Shown: piece by piece, positions 1,603 through 57,852 of the stretch | How the letters are laid out: each line of letters opens with the position of its first letter | Position numbering within the stretch: the stretch's first letter is position 1 | Source: Escherichia phage JacquesWildberger_Bas92 | Sequence record: PQ850610.1 | Length of the DNA: 64,000 bases | Reading direction: 5' to 3' (one strand) | Program-made: the position numbers and the translations under genes | The notes under the pieces: model-generated | Told to the model about the DNA's origin: nothing | What the model saw: the letters and a program-made list of their open reading frames with translations, nothing else | Databases searched by the model: none

Positions 1603-3846
1603 ATGGCTAAGCAAAAATATAGTGAAGAGGTGTTGGACGAGTTACGTGTTGACCTTCAACGTCGTTTTAATTACGCTCAAGGTTACGTTGACATGGCTGT
1701 TAAGGGCTATGCTCGTGAAGCTTGGGAATATTTCTATGGTAACTTACCTGCACCAGTAACTGCTGGCAGCTCTAGTTGGGTAGATCGTACTGTTTGGGAG
1801 TCTGTTAACGGTACACTGCAAGATATTATTAACGTATTCTGTTCTGGTGATGAAGCAGTTATTTTCGTAGCTGATAACCAACAGGATTCTGATGCTGCTG
1901 ACGTAGCAACTAAATTAGTTAATCAAATTCTTCTGCGTGACAATCCGGGATACAACATTATCTCTTCTGCTGCACAAGAATGTCTGGTTACTCGTAACTC
2001 TTTTATCAAATATTATTGGGATGAGCACACTTCTACCCAAACTGAAGAAGCTGAAGGTGTACCACCGGAGGCATTGGCTGCATATGTTCAGGGATTAGAA
2101 GCTGGTGGACTCAAGAATCTGGAAATCTTCACTGAAGAAAATGAAGATGGTACAGTTGATGTTAAAGTTACTTATGAACAAACTGTTAAACGTGTGAAAG
2201 TTGAATATGTTCCTTCAGAGCAAATCTTTGTTGACGAACATGCTACATCTTTTGCAGATGCACAATACTTCTGTCATCGTGTACGTCGTTCTAAAGAAGA
2301 TCTGGTTGCTATGGGCTTCCCTAAAGACGAGATTGAAGCATTCAACGACTGGACAGATACGATGGATACTACTCAATCTACAGTTGCTTGGTCTCGTACT
2401 GACTGGCGTCAGGACATTGATGCTGACATTGGTACAGATACCGAAGATATCGCTTCTATGGTTTGGGTTTATGAGCACTACATCCGTACTGGTGTTCTAG
2501 ATAAGAATAAAGAGTCTAAACTCTATCAGGTTATTCAAGCTGGTGAGCATATTCTTCACACTGAAGAAGTAACTCATATTCCGTTTGTAACCTTCTGCCC
2601 ATATCCGATTCCGGGTTCCTTCTATGGTCAGTCAGTCTATGACATTACGAAAGATATTCAGGATTTACGTACCGCGTTAGTTCGTGGTTATATTGATAAT
2701 GTCAACAATGCTAACTATGGTCGATACAAAGCACTCGTTGGTGCATATGATCGTCGCTCTCTGCTTGATAACCGTCCCGGTGGAGTGGTTGAAATGGAAC
2801 GTCAGGACGCTATTGACCTGTTCCCATATCATAATCTACCTCAAGGTATTGATGGCCTCCTAGGTATGTCTGAGGAGCTTAAAGAGACACGTACTGGTGT
2901 AACTAAACTTGGCATGGGTATTAACCCTGATGTGTTTAAGAATGATAACGCTTATGCAACCGTAGGCTTGATGATGAATGCTGCACAGAACCGTCTCCGT
3001 ATGGTATGTCGTAATATTGCTCACAACGGCATGGTTGAATTGATGCGTGGTATTTACAACCTTGTCAGAGAAAACGGTGAAGTTCCTATTGAGGTACAAA
3101 CCCCTCGTGGTATGGTTCAGGTAAATCCGAAACAATTACCAGCTCGTCACAATCTTCAAGTTGTGGTAGCTATTTCTCCTAATGAGAAAGCAGAACGTGC
3201 ACAGAAATTAATTAGCTTGAAACAGCTGATTGCAGCAGATGCACAGTTAGCACCTCTCTTTGGTTTGGAGCAAGACCGTTACATGACTGCACAGATCTTT
3301 GAGTTGATGGGTATTAAGGACACTCATAAGTACTTACTGCCTCTGGAACAGTATCAGCCTCCTGAGCCGTCTCCGATGGAAATCCTCCAGCTCGAGATGA
3401 CTAAAGCACAGGTTGAGAATGTACAGGCTTCCTCTCAGAAAATGATTGCTGATGCATTCGACCAACGTGAACGTACTACATTTGAACAGCAGAGAGCTGC
3501 GGATGAGTTAAGTCTGCGTCAGGAAGAGTTGCAGTTCAAGCAAGAAAATGCAGCAGATGCTATGACTCTGGAAAACCGTAAAGAAGATAACAATGCAACT
3601 CTGGAACAAGCTAAGCACAAGTTAGCTCTTATGCAACAGCAGGTCCGTCAGTATGAGTCTGTACTGAAAGAATTGCAGATGGTTATGGAGCATCAGGTAG
3701 ACCAAGAGAAGATTGTTCAGCAATTTCGTGTTCAGGATAAAACTTTGGAACTCCAAAAGAAAGAAGCTAATGTAACTAAGAAAGAGCAACAAGCCTCTCT
3801 CAAAGATTCACGGATTCCAGGCAAACGTCTTGGAAGTAAAAAGTAA
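1603..3846 (+). CDS. portal protein (with C-terminal coiled-coil extension)
   Basis: 747-aa ORF directly after terL, size and position typical of portal; C-terminal third is Q/E/K-rich coiled coil. Confidence 0.6.
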   Translation: MAKQKYSEEVLDELRVDLQRRFNYAQGYVDMAVKGYAREAWEYFYGNLPAPVTAGSSSWVDRTVWESVNGTLQDIINVFCSGDEAVIFVADNQQDSDAADVATKLVNQILLRDNPGYNIISSAAQECLVTRNSFIKYYWDEHTSTQTEEAEGVPPEALAAYVQGLEAGGLKNLEIFTEENEDGTVDVKVTYEQTVKRVKVEYVPSEQIFVDEHATSFADAQYFCHRVRRSKEDLVAMGFPKDEIEAFNDWTDTMDTTQSTVAWSRTDWRQDIDADIGTDTEDIASMVWVYEHYIRTGVLDKNKESKLYQVIQAGEHILHTEEVTHIPFVTFCPYPIPGSFYGQSVYDITKDIQDLRTALVRGYIDNVNNANYGRYKALVGAYDRRSLLDNRPGGVVEMERQDAIDLFPYHNLPQGIDGLLGMSEELKETRTGVTKLGMGINPDVFKNDNAYATVGLMMNAAQNRLRMVCRNIAHNGMVELMRGIYNLVRENGEVPIEVQTPRGMVQVNPKQLPARHNLQVVVAISPNEKAERAQKLISLKQLIAADAQLAPLFGLEQDRYMTAQIFELMGIKDTHKYLLPLEQYQPPEPSPMEILQLEMTKAQVENVQASSQKMIADAFDQRERTTFEQQRAADELSLRQEELQFKQENAADAMTLENRKEDNNATLEQAKHKLALMQQQVRQYESVLKELQMVMEHQVDQEKIVQQFRVQDKTLELQKKEANVTKKEQQASLKDSRIPGKRLGSKK

Positions 3847-3855
3847 GGACGTCGA

Positions 3856-4092
3856 ATGAACATTAGGCATCAATTCAATAAAGAGCACGCCGCCGCTTTG
3901 GCGGCTCTCAACCTTAACGGCAGTCTTGACGCAGCATTAGAGGCATTGAAAGAGAGACTCATGACAGAAATAGTTCAAACTGAACCTCATGAGAATAAGA
4001 AACGCGAAGATTGTTATCAAAAGTATAAAATGGTGGGTAGCTTAAAAGAGGTCATAAAAGCTGCTATCAATAGTGCAGGAGATGTTTCATAA
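3856..4092 (+). CDS. small hypothetical protein (78 aa)
   Basis: ORF with SD aaggacg upstream; stop overlaps next start (TAATG). Confidence 0.4.
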   Translation: MNIRHQFNKEHAAALAALNLNGSLDAALEALKERLMTEIVQTEPHENKKREDCYQKYKMVGSLKEVIKAAINSAGDVS

Positions 4093-5177
4093 TGCCACAA
4101 GATAATTATATTGACCCGAACGATTTTAAATCTTTCCTCCAACTGGATGACCTGAAGGGTTCTTTCAAAGAAGAACTTGGTCGATTAGAATCTGAACAAG
4201 AACCAGAAGTGGACATTGACGATGAGTTCCCGGAAAAAGACGGTGACGATTTCGACTTTGATACCGACCTTCTCGGTGAAAGCGATGAGCTTAAGTTCGA
4301 AGATGAAGATGGTTGGGAAGATCGTGACGAGGAAGGCGAAGTCGAACAAGATGAGGAAGAATCTGACGAATCAGACGAAAGTTCTGAAGCAGATGAGGAA
4401 GACTCAAGCGATGCAGGATATGGAGATGATTCTGCTGACGGTGAAGGTGAAGTCTTTGATGTAGACTATGAAACCGTTATCACCCTTCCTGATGGACGTG
4501 AGATGACTATTGAAGAACTCTCCAATGGCTATCTTACTGGTGCTGATATGGCTGAACGTGAGACTACTCTTCAGCGTCACATGGAAGCATTTGAGGAACG
4601 TGTAGTAGGTTTGAAGGATGTATTAGAATTAGCGTCTTTAGAAGCAGACCGAGTAATTGAAGATTACAACGGTTTTGATTGGGACAAGCTTGCAGTAGAA
4701 GATCCTCAAGCATATGTTGAAAACAAACGTTTCCTAGAGAAGTATACAGCTCGTCGTAACCAGCTTGAACAGGCTCAGATCCGTATTAAGCAGGAAGCAG
4801 CAGCTAAAGAGCAGGAAGCTTTCCAAGCCAAGAGCATTGAATGTGTTAATATTCTGAAACGTGAGATTCCAAATTGGGATGAAAACTTATATCAAAACTT
4901 AATGCAATACGCAATTGACTTAGGTGCTACTGAAGAAGAAGTATTGAAGGAAAACCGTCCGTCTATTTTCCTAGCCCTTCACAAAGCATACCAATTTGAT
5001 AAAGGTAAGCAGCAGGTGATGGCTAAGATTAAACGTCCCGGTGCTCCACGCAAGGTTGTGAAGTCTGATGCTGCAAAGTCTCGCACTTCCAATAAGCCAG
5101 ACAACGCTAAGGTTGCCAAGGCATTCGCAGAGGGTCGCGTTAGTCACGAAGACGCATTCAAATTCCTCGTAGATTAA
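4092..5177 (+). CDS. scaffolding-like protein (highly acidic N-terminal half)
   Basis: 361 aa; poly-acidic stretch DEEGEVEQDEEESDESDESSEADEEDSSD; located between portal and major capsid gene. Confidence 0.45.
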   Translation: MPQDNYIDPNDFKSFLQLDDLKGSFKEELGRLESEQEPEVDIDDEFPEKDGDDFDFDTDLLGESDELKFEDEDGWEDRDEEGEVEQDEEESDESDESSEADEEDSSDAGYGDDSADGEGEVFDVDYETVITLPDGREMTIEELSNGYLTGADMAERETTLQRHMEAFEERVVGLKDVLELASLEADRVIEDYNGFDWDKLAVEDPQAYVENKRFLEKYTARRNQLEQAQIRIKQEAAAKEQEAFQAKSIECVNILKREIPNWDENLYQNLMQYAIDLGATEEEVLKENRPSIFLALHKAYQFDKGKQQVMAKIKRPGAPRKVVKSDAAKSRTSNKPDNAKVAKAFAEGRVSHEDAFKFLVD

Positions 5178-5218
5178 TCGACAAATTAATTATTTAATAG
5201 TATAGGAGCTAACATAAC

Positions 5219-6280
5219 ATGGCTAATCCAACTTTATTTGTATCGTATGACCAGAATGGTAAAAAACTTTCTTTTGCTAACTGGATTTCTGTTCTGTCCC
5301 CTCAGGATACTCCGTTCGTATCTATGACCGGTAAAGAGTCTATCAACCAGACTATCTTTAGCTGGCAGACCGATGCATTGGCAAGCGTTGACGCTAATAA
5401 CGCACACGTTGAAGGTTCTCGTGCGGTTGATGGTGAAATGCAACCTACCGTAATCAAATCCAACGTTACTCAGATTCTGCGTAAGGTTGTTAAAGTTTCT
5501 GATACCGCTAACACCACCGCTAACTACGGTCGTGGTCGTGAACTGATGTATCAGCTGGAGAAGAAAGGTAAAGAGATCAAGCGTGACCTCGAGAAAATCC
5601 TTCTGTCCGGTCAGGCTCGTACCGATGTTCTGGCTGACCAATACCTGACTAACTCCGCAACTGATCCTTCAGCTGTTGGTCTGAACGACACCCACGCAGC
5701 TCGTAAGACTGGTGCTTTCCAGTTCCTGTGTGCACACAACGGTGTTTCTGCTGGTGTTGTTAAGAAAGAAAATGGCCCTGCTGATCCGGATACTGGTGCA
5801 GTAACTGTTAAAGTTGCACAGAATGCTTCTAACCCGACCACTAACGTTGGTTTTGATGAAGCTGATATCTTTGATATGACTCTGCAACTGTACACTGCTG
5901 GTTCTGAAGCAGATATCATCATGATCAACCCTGCTCATGCTAAGATCTTCGCTGGTCTGCAAGAAAACACTCAGGGTTCACGTAAGCGTATCTTTGAGAA
6001 CACCAAGCAGTTCATCTACGAAGTTAACAGCATCACTGACCCGCTGGGCCAGAACTACAAAATCATCGTTAACCGTTGGATGCCTACCGATGCAGTTTAC
6101 TTCTTCCGTAGCGCTGACTGGACTCAGATGGTCCTGCGTGCTCCGAAACGTACTGAACTGGCAAAAGATGGTTCTTATGAGAAGTGGATGATTGAAATGG
6201 AAGTTGGTCTGCGTCACCGCAACCCTTATGCTTCCGGAGTTCTGTTCACTGCTGCGGGAAAGTTGGATCCGCAACAGTAG
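5219..6280 (+). CDS. major capsid protein
   Basis: 353-aa ORF with strong SD (taggag) in canonical position after scaffold; followed by Ig-like extension and strong terminator. Confidence 0.7.
   Translation: MANPTLFVSYDQNGKKLSFANWISVLSPQDTPFVSMTGKESINQTIFSWQTDALASVDANNAHVEGSRAVDGEMQPTVIKSNVTQILRKVVKVSDTANTTANYGRGRELMYQLEKKGKEIKRDLEKILLSGQARTDVLADQYLTNSATDPSAVGLNDTHAARKTGAFQFLCAHNGVSAGVVKKENGPADPDTGAVTVKVAQNASNPTTNVGFDEADIFDMTLQLYTAGSEADIIMINPAHAKIFAGLQENTQGSRKRIFENTKQFIYEVNSITDPLGQNYKIIVNRWMPTDAVYFFRSADWTQMVLRAPKRTELAKDGSYEKWMIEMEVGLRHRNPYASGVLFTAAGKLDPQQ
6256..6262 (+). other. candidate -1 ribosomal frameshift slippery heptamer G_GGA_AAG near capsid 3' end
   Basis: GGGAAAG in X_XXY_YYZ register of capsid frame; -1 frame is open from 6196 and continues into Ig-like ORF. 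Confidence 0.45.
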
Positions 6281-6285
6281 ACAGT

Positions 6286-6798
6286 GTGACTGTTAGCCCT
6301 GCGTCTGTAGAAAGTCTAGAGACAGGGGCTACTCAGCAGTTTACTGCAAGCGCTGAGAAGAGTGACGGCTCTACCGAAACAACTGGCTTTACTTGGTCAG
6401 TAACAGGAGGCGGCTCTATCACTCAGTCTGGTTTGTATACTGCTCCGAGTGCGGCTCAATCCACTGATGTATCCATTACTGCGACTTTAGAGGGTGTTTC
6501 TGGTACAGCAACCATTTCTGAAATTGTTGATCCTGCCCCTACTATTGTAGCTAAGGGTCCAATTACAGGTAAAACTGGTGGTTCTTCCACTAACTTCACT
6601 ACCATGTTTACTGTAACTAATTCTACTGCTGCGGATTACACGTTTGTTGTAACCCCTGAAGAAGCTGGTACAGTAAGCGCTGCTGGTGCGTTAACCTTAG
6701 ATGATGCTGCAAGTGGCGAAGTTACTGTTCAAGCAAGTTTGACAGCTGACCCGTCCATCAATGCAACATGCACTTTTACTGGTGTAACACCTGCTTAA
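6286..6798 (+). CDS. bacterial Ig-like (Big_2-type) domain protein; probably a C-terminal capsid extension made by frameshift
   Basis: Big_2-like sequence begins upstream of the GTG (VDSVTVSPASVESLETGATQQFTA...); ORF is -1 relative to capsid; no SD before GTG at 6286. Confidence 0.55.
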   Translation: MTVSPASVESLETGATQQFTASAEKSDGSTETTGFTWSVTGGGSITQSGLYTAPSAAQSTDVSITATLEGVSGTATISEIVDPAPTIVAKGPITGKTGGSSTNFTTMFTVTNSTAADYTFVVTPEEAGTVSAAGALTLDDAASGEVTVQASLTADPSINATCTFTGVTPA

Positions 6799-6804
6799 AA
6801 TTAG

Positions 6805-6830
6805 ACCCTGCCTTCGGGCGGGGTTTTTTC
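6805..6830 (+). terminator. rho-independent terminator
   Basis: acCCTGCC-ttcg-GGCGGGgt stem followed by tttttt. Confidence 0.7.
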
Positions 6831-6857
6831 GTTTTAAGACCTATACAAGCCAGCGTG

Positions 6858-6899: not shown

Positions 6900-7652
6900 A
6901 TGGCAATGCCAGATGTTCAATACCCCATCAATACCTATGGGTGGCTAAAGAAGGCCGTGGCCCTCTGGGCAGATAGGGACGATGACGAATTTGTTAATCA
7001 AATTCCAAACTTTATTAACTTTGCAGAGAAAGAGATTTATCGTAACTTACGTATCCCTCCTCTGGAAAAAGAAGTGTATTTAGATATTAAAGATGGAGTA
7101 GCTTACATTCCTCCTGATTACCTAGAAGCTCAATGGATGATGAGAGCCAAAGATGGTACAATCTTCCAAGTAACCTCTCCTGAAGAGATTAGCTATCGTA
7201 GACAGCATGGAACAATTAATCCATCTCATTGGAATAACCAACCTGTTAACTTTGCTCGTTTCGGTAGTCGTTTCATTTTCTACCCTAGCATCGAAGCAGA
7301 TACTCCGTACTACCCTGATGATGGAAGCCCTTTGATTCCAGCAGAAAACTCAGTAATTCTTAGCTATTATGCAGACCCACCGGAATTCCACGAAGATGAA
7401 GATACTAGTGCAATCCTCACTATCGCACCAGAACTTCTTCTGTATTTCACTCTGCGTCATGCTTGCTTATTTGTTCAAGATGATAACGGAGTTCAGAAAT
7501 GGTCAGCATTAGGAAAAGCTATCCTTGATGAAATGGTAGAACAGAATAAGAAACAAGAGTACTCAGGTTCACCTATCGCAATTCCGAATAACATGACTCG
7601 ACTTCAGAGCAGCTTGCCTGATATTTATGGTATTCGTACTTCTCGTGTATAA
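6900..7652 (+). CDS. virion structural protein (possible head-tail adaptor)
   Basis: 250-aa ORF, strong SD, first gene after capsid terminator. Confidence 0.35.
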   Translation: MAMPDVQYPINTYGWLKKAVALWADRDDDEFVNQIPNFINFAEKEIYRNLRIPPLEKEVYLDIKDGVAYIPPDYLEAQWMMRAKDGTIFQVTSPEEISYRRQHGTINPSHWNNQPVNFARFGSRFIFYPSIEADTPYYPDDGSPLIPAENSVILSYYADPPEFHEDEDTSAILTIAPELLLYFTLRHACLFVQDDNGVQKWSALGKAILDEMVEQNKKQEYSGSPIAIPNNMTRLQSSLPDIYGIRTSRV

Positions 7653-57777: not shown

Positions 57778-57852
57778 TGGCGTTCCCTCGTGGAATCGAA
57801 CCACGAATAAGAGCTTAGAAGGCTCCAGTTATATCCGTTTAACTAAGGGAAC
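57778..57852 (-). tRNA. tRNA-Arg (anticodon UCU)
   Basis: 75-nt cloverleaf: acceptor GTTCCCT/AGGGAAC, D stem GTTA/TAAC, anticodon loop CTTCTAA, T-arm CGTGG-TTCGATT-CCACG, encoded CCA. Confidence 0.85.

Follow-up and report, generated by a model that had tools for sequence, protein, structure and literature searches.

The capsid locus analyzed here very probably (roughly 90%) encodes two forms of its major capsid protein (MCP), the minor long form being an MCP fused to two Ig-like domains by -1 programmed ribosomal frameshifting at the slippery heptamer G_GGA_AAG (6256–6262). The window, i.e., the whole stretch of 64,000 nucleotides that was analyzed, derives from a Kuravirus-like (Gordonclarkvirinae) coliphage and is 99.4% identical to phage LAMP. 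The frameshift is already known for this phage group, and its mechanism has been described since 2008. The initial annotation, which had presented it as a discovery, was therefore anticipated by publications on phiEco32, SU10, Paul, Privateer and YF01; its proposal that MCP is joined to an Ig-like extension by a -1 shift was supported by the conservation of the heptamer, by the switch of the constrained reading frame and by the literature on relatives. In the window and its relatives, the sequence anatomy, its conservation, the switch of constraint at the heptamer and the absence of an independent initiation signal were observed.

Capsid gene and overlapping -1 frame

The features of the locus, all on the + strand, are as follows.

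5204..5208, +, Shine-Dalgarno sequence AGGAG of the MCP gene (anti-SD duplex -6.5 kcal/mol)
5219..6280, +, MCP gene, 0 frame (ORF list, Pfam PF17236, PDB 7z45)
6256..6262, +, slippery heptamer G_GGA_AAG, phased with the MCP frame from ATG 5219
6262..6798, +, -1-frame extension (178 aa, pI 4.05, TAA 6796–6798)
6277..6507, +, Ig-like domain 1 (Big_2-like), extension residues 6–82, starting upstream of GTG 6286
6294..6331, +, conserved RNA stem-loop core within the extension ORF (folding and alignment), a candidate modulator
6517..6786, +, Ig-like domain 2, presumably Ig-like by its matches, extension residues about 86–175
6803..6836, +, intrinsic terminator directly 3' of the extension stop codon

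The MCP gene encodes 353 aa (computed mass of 38.9 kDa) and ends with TAG at 6278–6280. Its product, a protein of the HK97 fold, matched the Pfam family SU10_MCP (PF17236; E = 4.2e-78) and the major head protein of SU10 (PDB 7z45; E = 2.2e-224). The gene order of portal, small ORF, scaffold, MCP, extension and terminator agreed with the annotated loci of SU10, LAMP and Paul. Between the MCP stop codon and the extension, neither a terminator nor a promoter was found, and homologous terminators are annotated in the records of SU10, Paul and Privateer. AGGAG at 5204–5208 is the sole ribosome entry site for both capsid products. In a protein collection, no exact match existed for the fusion, for the MCP or for the 170-aa ORF.

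The heptamer is read in the MCP frame as GCG GGA AAG (A-G-K, MCP residues 346–348) and precedes the MCP stop codon by five codons. The -1 frame is closed by TGA at 6193–6195 and then open from 6196 to TAA at 6796–6798. Thus, the phase of the heptamer and the open -1 frame were confirmed as initially annotated, and the overlap, given there as the last 28 capsid codons, was measured as 27–28. GGGAAAG occurs once on both strands of the 64 kb, with 6.7 ± 2.7 occurrences expected. When in-phase X_XXY_YYZ heptamers (Y = A or T) were scanned within ORFs of at least 150 aa, only 1 of 24, GGGAAAG at 6256–6262, was followed by a long -1 ORF (178 aa, as compared to at most 30 aa for the others). Since GGGAAAG is unique in the 64 kb and alone among the 24 heptamers leads into a long -1 ORF, the arrangement exceeds chance. 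In E. coli, G_GGA_AAG is regarded as "highly shift-prone" (PMC5009743).

The predicted fusion, join(5219..6262,6262..6798), comprises 526 aa (55.7 kDa); the earlier value of about 525 aa was corrected accordingly, and that of 353 aa for the MCP stood. Its predicted junction reads ...FTAAGK followed by VGSATVDSVTVSP.... The extension matched PHROG 13745, "Ig domain containing protein", with E = 2.7e-81. The match of the window's own extension to Pfam Big_2 (PF02368) reached E = 4.8e-4 and 20.5 bits, the gathering cut-off being 22.8 bits. Ten extensions were scanned for Big_2, and all nine of those from Gordonclarkvirinae, the window's included, matched at E <= 0.01 (best E = 1.4e-18). In the window, this match begins with residue 6 of the extension (nt 6277) and thus three codons ahead of GTG 6286, in agreement with the earlier claim that Big_2 begins before this codon. 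The extension profile also matched PDB chains of a teneurin-like protein, T5 pb6 and intimin, and the regions matched by domain 2 (6517..6786) we take to be Ig-like domains. A single-sequence AF2 model of the 178-aa extension was all-beta and of low confidence; with a mean pLDDT of 48.9 it was too unreliable as a query for fold searches, and HMM evidence was used instead. Sequence identity of the extension to those of ShigP1, NJ01-like phages, ECBP2-like phages, Paul, EP335, Bas87, SR02 and EK010 was 61–93%.

The initial annotation had proposed a peptide spanning the junction as diagnostic for the fusion. This did not hold for tryptic digests, as trypsin cuts at the junction lysine, and the diagnostic tryptic peptide is VGSATVDSVTVSPASVESLETGATQQFTASAEK, encoded from 6262 and thus partly upstream of GTG 6286. 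A junction-spanning peptide (...LFTAAGKVGSATVD...) is obtainable with chymotrypsin, Glu-C or Asp-N.

Conservation of the heptamer and constraint in the -1 frame

The in-phase heptamer was kept in all relatives analyzed (19 of 19), which belong to two taxa and include the Privateer type with an MCP only 57% identical. GGGAAAG was invariant in alignments A1 and A3, while flanking sequence, linker and extension length (169–545 aa) varied. A metagenome scan with the pattern TTCACNGCTGCGGGAAAG yielded 120 stretches, nearly all of them chance matches, and eight contigs were true relatives by blastn. These carry the heptamer as well, but as the retrieval pattern contained it, they provide no independent test of conservation. 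Scanning IMG/VR with this pattern gained no further relatives.

In Privateer, the overlap between the 0 and -1 frames is exactly 7 nt, i.e., the heptamer itself. Upstream of the heptamer, the -1-frame stop codons of Privateer and Csa009 are 0 and 9 nt away from it, and a 0-frame stop codon directly follows it. Since these stop codons bracket the heptamer, slippage in both phages is restricted to it.

The codon-phase signature of substitutions changes frame at the heptamer. Upstream, 7 of 8 variable columns fell on third positions of MCP codons; downstream, 20 of 35 fell on third positions of the -1 frame. Synonymous changes outnumbered non-synonymous ones downstream of the heptamer, in several clades even upstream of any start codon.

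Alternative explanations and RNA structure

If the Ig-like ORF were a separate gene starting at GTG 6286, be it through initiation de novo or through termination-reinitiation, its product would be a free 170-aa protein decorating the capsid noncovalently. The GenBank records of LAMP, Bas93 and Bas94 annotate two separate genes, GTG 6286 sits 5 nt past TAG 6278–6280 at a spacing compatible with translational coupling, and the SU10 structural paper considered gp10 a possible free minor capsid protein. However, the codon lacks a Shine-Dalgarno sequence, as the initial annotation had stated: its anti-SD duplex of -0.5 kcal/mol falls short of the background (averaging -1.6 kcal/mol) and of the duplexes at seven neighbouring gene starts (-6.1 to -11.4 kcal/mol). 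Nor is it conserved: the ECBP2/KBNP1711 and Bas87/EK010 types have GTA in its place, and the NJ01/Paul type has ATA or GTA. Among relatives, the first possible start of the -1 ORF falls at extension codon 9, 16, 34, 47 or 61 (16, 34 or 47 where the GTG is replaced in this way, 61 in Privateer), a position that is unconserved and lies within the Ig domain. Moreover, the conserved peptide VTVD(S/T)(V/I)TVSP starts upstream of the GTG, as does the match to Big_2, purifying selection in the -1 frame acts upstream of the start codons of relatives, and density for a free Ig protein was not seen in SU10 heads. A separate gene is thus quite improbable, although some termination-reinitiation is conceivable for the present phage from its sequence.

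The chance is smaller still that one capsid gene was split by an indel in sequencing or assembly, or that the extension is an unexpressed, pseudogenised remnant as in SU10, a phage that lost its extension by a 1-nt insertion and is still viable. This arrangement of frames is shared by dozens of phages and metagenomic contigs that were sequenced independently. The extension ORF of the window is intact over 178 codons, with synonymous exceeding non-synonymous changes, and an intact terminator stands after the extension and not after the MCP stop codon. Furthermore, the protein modelled in the SU10 cryo-EM structure is the short form of 352–353 aa. Hardly more credible is a frame change at the RNA level, with RNA polymerase slipping at GGGAAAG to generate a subpopulation of mRNA one base shorter. 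Productive transcriptional slippage depends on longer homopolymer tracts, with at least about 7 A or T, and the slip site offers only three G and three A. In addition, the motif is exactly phased as X_XXY_YYZ, which is relevant to tRNA re-pairing only, and G_GGA_AAG is highly shift-prone for E. coli ribosomes. In favour of this reading, transcriptional slippage is known as an alternative way in which bacteria and phages make -1 products (reviewed in PMC5009743).

Folding revealed no stable hairpin 5–9 nt downstream of the heptamer, and no SD-like stimulator was present at the usual upstream spacing of about 10–14 nt. GGAG at 6236–6239 was rejected as such an element: it is located 16 nt from the heptamer, and relatives carry GGCG or GGTG. 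The initial annotation had suggested RNA folding for a downstream stem-loop or pseudoknot. A conserved stem-loop does exist, but an element at canonical spacing does not. The stem-loop begins 31 nt 3' of the heptamer when its core is considered and 13 nt when the outer helix is included, which reaches 6276–6345 in the MFE structure of the window; at this spacing (13–31 nt) it was ruled out as a canonical stimulator. Its folding energies lie between -27 and -30 kcal/mol, with z between -2.3 and -2.65. Across 20 sequences, 94.6% of cells were paired and 3 pairs had changed on both sides; the covariation is weak and rests on about four clades, while the conservation is real. The stem-loop proposed around the SU10 heptamer (CTGCTGCGGGAAAGGCGGCGG, PMC4281155) was likewise dropped as a required element, its 3' arm having been replaced in the lineage of the window. 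Moreover, any helix that includes the slip site has to be open by the time this site is decoded.

A stimulatory element is usual but not obligatory for -1 frameshift cassettes, and here none is present at canonical spacing. It is conceivable, although rather unlikely, that the stem-loop core (6294–6331) tunes frameshifting at a distance. It might pause a leading ribosome so that the trailing ribosome dwells on the heptamer, or it might set the long-to-short subunit ratio that the prolate head requires. If so, the lineage of LAMP, Bas93 and Bas94, in which the immediate 3' context was replaced, would represent a naturally occurring variant whose isoform ratio differs.

Proposed mechanism, known systems and annotation

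Both capsid proteins would be translated from one late mRNA, which holds the MCP gene and the overlapping -1 ORF behind the single ribosome-binding site at 5204–5208 and would end at the terminator at 6803–6836. The majority of ribosomes would translate 5219–6280 and release the 353-aa MCP. A minority would slip by -1 with GGA and AAG of the heptamer in the P and A sites, the tRNAs re-pairing from GGA to GGG and from AAG to AAA, and would continue with GTT at 6262 as the next codon. The predicted product is the 526-aa MCP with two C-terminal Ig-like domains. We infer the frameshift efficiency, where on the capsid the extension is placed and what its Ig-like domains do: the long form would be a sub-stoichiometric subunit that assembles into the prolate head together with the short one, its acidic Ig-like domains outside, and the displayed domains may weakly bind carbohydrates or cell surfaces.

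The closest known systems are found within the phiEco32 group. The phiEco32-like phages phiEco32, Paul, YF01 and SU10 share with the window the SU10_MCP-family MCP (94–96% amino-acid identity), the synteny of portal, small ORF, scaffold and MCP, and GGGAAAG located a few codons ahead of the MCP stop codon, followed by a Big_2-type extension and a terminator. In SU10, slippage at GGGAAAG was reported to join MCP to an Ig-like domain "as in phiEco32" (PMC4281155). The record of phage Paul (MN045231) notes a "Frameshift at GGGAAAG". The same frameshift was stated group-wide for YF01 "and other group phages" (PMC9965538), in a paper whose group table includes LAMP. For phiEco32 itself, the experimental basis of the frameshift at GGGAAAG is given through secondary citations in PMC4281155, PMC7881722 and PMC9965538; for SU10, too, both capsid products are reported by citation. 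The BASEL paper contains no discussion of a capsid frameshift.

The lineage of LAMP, Bas93 and Bas94 differs from the phiEco32-like phages in the 3' context of the heptamer (TTGGATCCGCAA versus GTGGCGGCGTAA). Because this context was replaced, the MCP's C-terminus (KLDPQQ versus KVAA) and the linker (VGSAT versus GGGVT) differ as well, and the SU10 heptamer stem-loop was not kept. Extension length varies from 178 aa in the window and 545 aa in Paul to a truncated 11 aa in SU10. The SU10 cryo-EM map contains no Ig density, which is explained by a 1-nt insertion private to SU10 that truncates its extension.

The Proteus phage Privateer (Grimontviridae) resembles the window in its homologous MCP (57% identity), its in-phase GGGAAAG and its Ig-like extension of 169 aa in the -1 frame, and its record (MT028297) gives a joined CDS. 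Two capsid bands were observed for this phage, and the minor capsid protein was found in its virions by mass spectrometry (PMC7881722). By analogy to these relatives, the long product is expected in virions of the present phage. The Privateer extension differs, being of the I-set/Ig_3 type and not Big_2, and a hairpin is predicted 6 nt downstream of the Privateer heptamer (canonical spacing, z only -1.5), which the window lacks.

The capsid proteins 10A and 10B of T7 and T3, invoked in the initial annotation, follow the same logic: a -1 shift late in the major capsid gene leads to a minor, longer subunit. As a mechanistic analogy this precedent is sound; as an example of an Ig-like domain it is not, since the T7 extension is short and not known to be Ig-like. 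Full T7 frameshifting requires distal 3' sequences, and both slip site and extension differ from those of the window. The MCP of the window was assigned by Pfam to SU10_MCP only, a family assignment that would set it apart from T7 gp10. For T7/T3 gene 10, a slippage rate of about 10% is quoted (PMC9965538). More fitting precedents than T7 are offered by the phiEco32 group and by a survey of Ig-like domains in phages (Fraser et al. 2006, cited in PMC9965538).

The cassettes of E. coli dnaX and of IS elements (X_XXA_AAG) share with the window the A_AAG ending and the shift-prone E. coli lysine tRNA. In these cassettes, an SD-like element lies upstream and is accompanied by a hairpin or pseudoknot 5–9 nt downstream; the window has neither stimulator at that spacing. 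A different solution is found in distant Moazamivirus and Crifsvirus relatives, which also possess short and long, Big_2-bearing capsid proteins of the SU10_MCP family. Here, gene duplication has provided the two forms, the long one has its Ig-like domain joined in frame, and a slippery heptamer is absent: Salmonella phage SE131 encodes a short MCP and an MCP paralogue of 586 aa that includes Big_2 in the same frame, and a similar arrangement is seen in Cronobacter phage A24. The existence of this MCP–Big_2 fusion in frame speaks for the frameshift reading.

Conceptually, nothing is added to the published work on phiEco32, SU10, Paul, Privateer and YF01; the practical value lies in annotation. 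For the present phage and its closest relatives LAMP, Bas93 and Bas94, frameshifting is predicted from the sequence and from other phages of the group; the records of LAMP, Bas93 and Bas94 list two genes and lack a joined CDS. In most Kuravirus-like records, "major head protein" and "Ig domain containing protein" are given as separate genes, or the second is not called. The biologically meaningful product would be join(5219..6262,6262..6798), and its correct annotation would be useful for proteomics, for the interpretation of cryo-EM maps and for phage display or engineering at the capsid C-terminus.

Capsid locus, probable slip site and predicted fusion product

The capsid region of Bas92 (window 5219-6830) was 99.4% identical to that of Escherichia phage LAMP, ~99% identical to those of the BASEL phages Bas93 and Bas94, and ~94% identical to those of numerous Kuravirus-like (Gordonclarkvirinae) coliphages, phiEco32 and SU10 among them. 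The local order is large terminase, portal, small ORF, scaffold, major capsid protein (MCP), Ig-like ORF and adaptor/gatekeeper gene, as in the annotated loci of SU10, LAMP and Paul. The MCP matched Pfam SU10_MCP (E = 4.2e-78) and the solved structure of the SU10 major head protein (7z45, E = 2.2e-224). In the window, no terminator- or promoter-like element was found between the MCP stop and the Ig-like extension. The features of the locus are:

1603-3846, portal
4092-5177, scaffold
5219-6280, MCP, 353 codons, TAG stop at 6278-6280
6294-6331, core of an RNA stem-loop inside the Ig ORF, outer helix to 6276-6345 (-30 kcal/mol, z = -2.65)
6803-6826, intrinsic terminator plus T run, directly 3' of the extension stop
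at 6900, adaptor/gatekeeper gene

One tRNA-Arg gene (anticodon TCT) lies at 57778-57852 on the minus strand; the group table in PMC9965538 likewise gives such a gene for Kuravirus-like genomes. Record MZ417522.1 ('Mycolicibacterium phage J1', 24,953 bp, labelled M. smegmatis) showed 92% nucleotide identity to the capsid region, and its host label or record origin looks doubtful.

The initial annotation had proposed that a -1 frameshift fuses the MCP to an Ig-like domain, and this is supported by sequence anatomy, relatives and the literature on the group. The -1 frame has a TGA at 6193-6195 and is then open from 6196 to the TAA at 6796-6798, and the heptamer G_GGA_AAG lies in the capsid frame at 6256-6262; frame, opening, position and phase were all reproduced. 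After the slip, decoding resumes at GTT 6262 and yields ...FTAAGK-VGSATVDSVTVSP... The fusion comprises 348 + 178 = 526 aa (55.7 kDa), and the MCP alone has 38.9 kDa; the annotated 353 aa of the capsid protein stood, while the ~525 aa given for the fusion was corrected. For tryptic digests the correct diagnostic peptide is VGSATVDSVTVSPASVESLETGATQQFTASAEK, as cleavage falls on the lysine of the junction. Our confidence that -1 frameshifting at 6256-6262 produces the long fusion of capsid protein and Ig-like domains is about 0.9. Classical tandem slippage at G_GGA_AAG is the most likely mechanism, in which P-site pairing would move from GGA to GGG and A-site pairing from AAG to AAA.

Extension residues 6-82 matched Pfam Big_2. 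The match starts at nt 6277 and so, as noted initially, 5' of the first possible start codon, GTG 6286. The window extension alone scored 20.5 bits, slightly below the gathering cut-off of 22.8 bits; in a ten-member scan with the window's counted in, Big_2 was found at E <= 0.01 in 9/9 Gordonclarkvirinae extensions (best E = 1.4e-18). In an extension-profile search, domain 2 (residues ~86-175) matched the C-terminal portion of T5 tail tube protein pb6 and intimin, in regions that we take to be Ig-like domains. Therefore, the extension was assigned two Ig-like domains. Its length in relatives ranges from 169 to 545 aa, with a spread of 178 to 545 aa through extra Ig-like modules among otherwise very similar phages (Paul, EP335, Bas87, SR02, EK010), as though Ig repeats were gained and lost as modules. 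Privateer-type phages carry I-set domains in the extension, whereas Gordonclarkvirinae carry Big_2; judged from these sequences, the slip site is retained and the module attached to the capsid protein exchanged.

Conservation, coding constraint and rival explanations

GGGAAAG occurs once on both strands of the 64 kb, compared to 6.7 ± 2.7 copies in dinucleotide-preserving shuffles, which is consistent with avoidance of a shift-prone heptamer outside the capsid site. Within ORFs of 150 aa or more, a census of the window counted 24 in-phase X_XXY_YYZ heptamers (Y = A or T). At the capsid site, the -1 frame stays open for 178 codons, beyond the 0-frame stop, compared to at most 30 at the other 23. 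A_AAA_AAG, the motif most prone to shifting in E. coli, is in phase at ~48473 on the minus strand within the long ORF 48230-49921; there, the -1 frame shuts after 4 codons, so that a slip would merely truncate the product.

The 19 relatives whose MCP frame was known, drawn from phage records, IMG/VR contigs and the Privateer-type phages (57% identical in the MCP), all carried in-phase GGGAAAG close to the MCP stop. The heptamer was also present on eight metagenomic contigs, which, as the retrieval pattern contained it, are not an independent conservation test. The bases immediately 3' of the heptamer vary, with a 3-nt indel. In Privateer, a -1-frame TGA adjoins the heptamer 5' and a 0-frame TAA adjoins it 3'; hence, the frame can change solely within the heptamer. 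Among 20 distinct aligned sequences, MCP-frame third positions accounted for 7/8 variable columns upstream of the heptamer, and -1-frame third positions for 20/35 from the MCP stop to extension codon 33. Synonymous codon differences exceeded non-synonymous ones, e.g., 19-23 versus 8-10 for more distant clades. Thus, coding constraint switches frame at the heptamer.

Independent translation of the Ig-like ORF from GTG 6286, by initiation or by termination-reinitiation, is improbable. As annotated initially, this GTG lacks a Shine-Dalgarno sequence: its pairing of -0.5 kcal/mol, essentially none, is weaker than the regional background mean of -1.6, and seven neighbouring gene starts reach -6.1 to -11.4 kcal/mol. 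After the slip, the earliest ATG, GTG or TTG is extension codon 9 for the window and for phiEco32 types, codon 16 for Bas87/EK010, 34 for NJ01/Paul/EP335/SR02/XT73, 47 for ECBP2/KBNP1711 and 61 for Privateer, in each case within the first Ig domain. Upstream of those start codons, the peptide VTVD(S/T)(V/I)TVSP is conserved, so independent initiation fails in clades without that GTG. A sequencing artefact or pseudogene is very unlikely, and so is slippage at the RNA level.

Downstream structure and candidate stimulators

At canonical spacing, no stimulator was seen: window folds contained nothing stable within 9 nt downstream of the heptamer. The upstream GGAG at 6236-6239 was rejected as stimulator, being 16 nt from the heptamer and not conserved in relatives; the heptamer-spanning stem-loop proposed for SU10 (PMC4281155), whose 3' arm is lost in the window's lineage, was rejected as a required element. 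The downstream stem-loop for which the initial annotation had suggested folding is present, but begins 13-31 nt 3' of the heptamer. Across 20 distinct Gordonclarkvirinae sequences, 94.6% of its cells were paired versus 87.1% in shuffles, and pairing fell to 32-55% when partners were slid by 1-3 columns. Three pairs showed both-sided changes, one of them with U-A, G-C and A-U, in about four clades only. Because the covariation rests on these few clades and the spacing lies outside the usual range, the stem-loop was rated a candidate modulator only. In this phage, the ratio of the isoforms would then be set with no canonical stimulator.

For the Privateer and Aeromonas-phage sites, unlike that of the window, hairpins were predicted 6 nt downstream. 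The Aeromonas-phage-related IMG/VR contigs L010-L012 (~3912-3940) retain a -1 ORF after the MCP with 2x Big_2 (E = 7.9e-35), and the LAh_8-like locus L013 retains one with an I-set domain. No canonical heptamer was found in these four loci. The site is G_GTA_AAG, followed by a 6-nt spacer and the GC-rich hairpin GCGCCC-CUAC-GGGCGU (regional fold z = -4.9), which suggests single-tRNA A_AAG slippage offset by a strong stimulator.

Two capsid forms in the phage group and beyond

In this phage group, the MCP-Ig frameshift has already been described. The SU10 genome paper (PMC4281155) reported 'a potential ribosomal slippage (GGGAAAG)' joining the major head protein to the Ig-like domain, in its words 'as in phage phiEco32', and the joined CDS in the GenBank record of Paul is annotated 'Frameshift at GGGAAAG; Frameshift in PhiEco32 major capsid protein product as well (PMID 18294652)'. 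Privateer, with a joined CDS on record, shows two capsid bands and a minor capsid protein by mass spectrometry, and the frameshifted product is stated as observed in phiEco32 and SU10 (PMC7881722). According to PMC9965538, two MCP forms arise via GGGAAAG in 'YF01 and other group phages', LAMP being listed in that group, and SU10 heads are without the long form owing to a premature -1-frame stop. This stop was traced to a 1-nt insertion, ACACTGTCTACTG versus ACAGTGTGACTG (SU10 locus L003 ~2570-2582; window ~6282-6290), that cuts the extension to 11 aa and thereby explains why SU10 cryo-EM heads have no Ig density. In the recoding review PMC5009743, G_GGA_AAG is given as highly shift-prone in E. 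coli. A capsid frameshift is not mentioned in the BASEL paper and no LAMP/Bas93/Bas94-lineage record annotates a joined CDS; the corrected annotation for the window is join(5219..6262,6262..6798).

In more distant relatives, gene duplication takes the place of the window's -1 slip. Salmonella phage SE131 (L018, 1985-2923 and 3001-4761) encodes an MCP of 312 aa together with an MCP paralogue of 586 aa that carries Big_2 in frame at its C-terminus; MCP paralogues with extensions also occur in Cronobacter phage A24 and in Aeromonas phage APT65, APT65 having four consecutive MCP-family genes, one of 428 aa. The pair of a short and a long capsid protein thus appears to be an old requirement met by two different routes.
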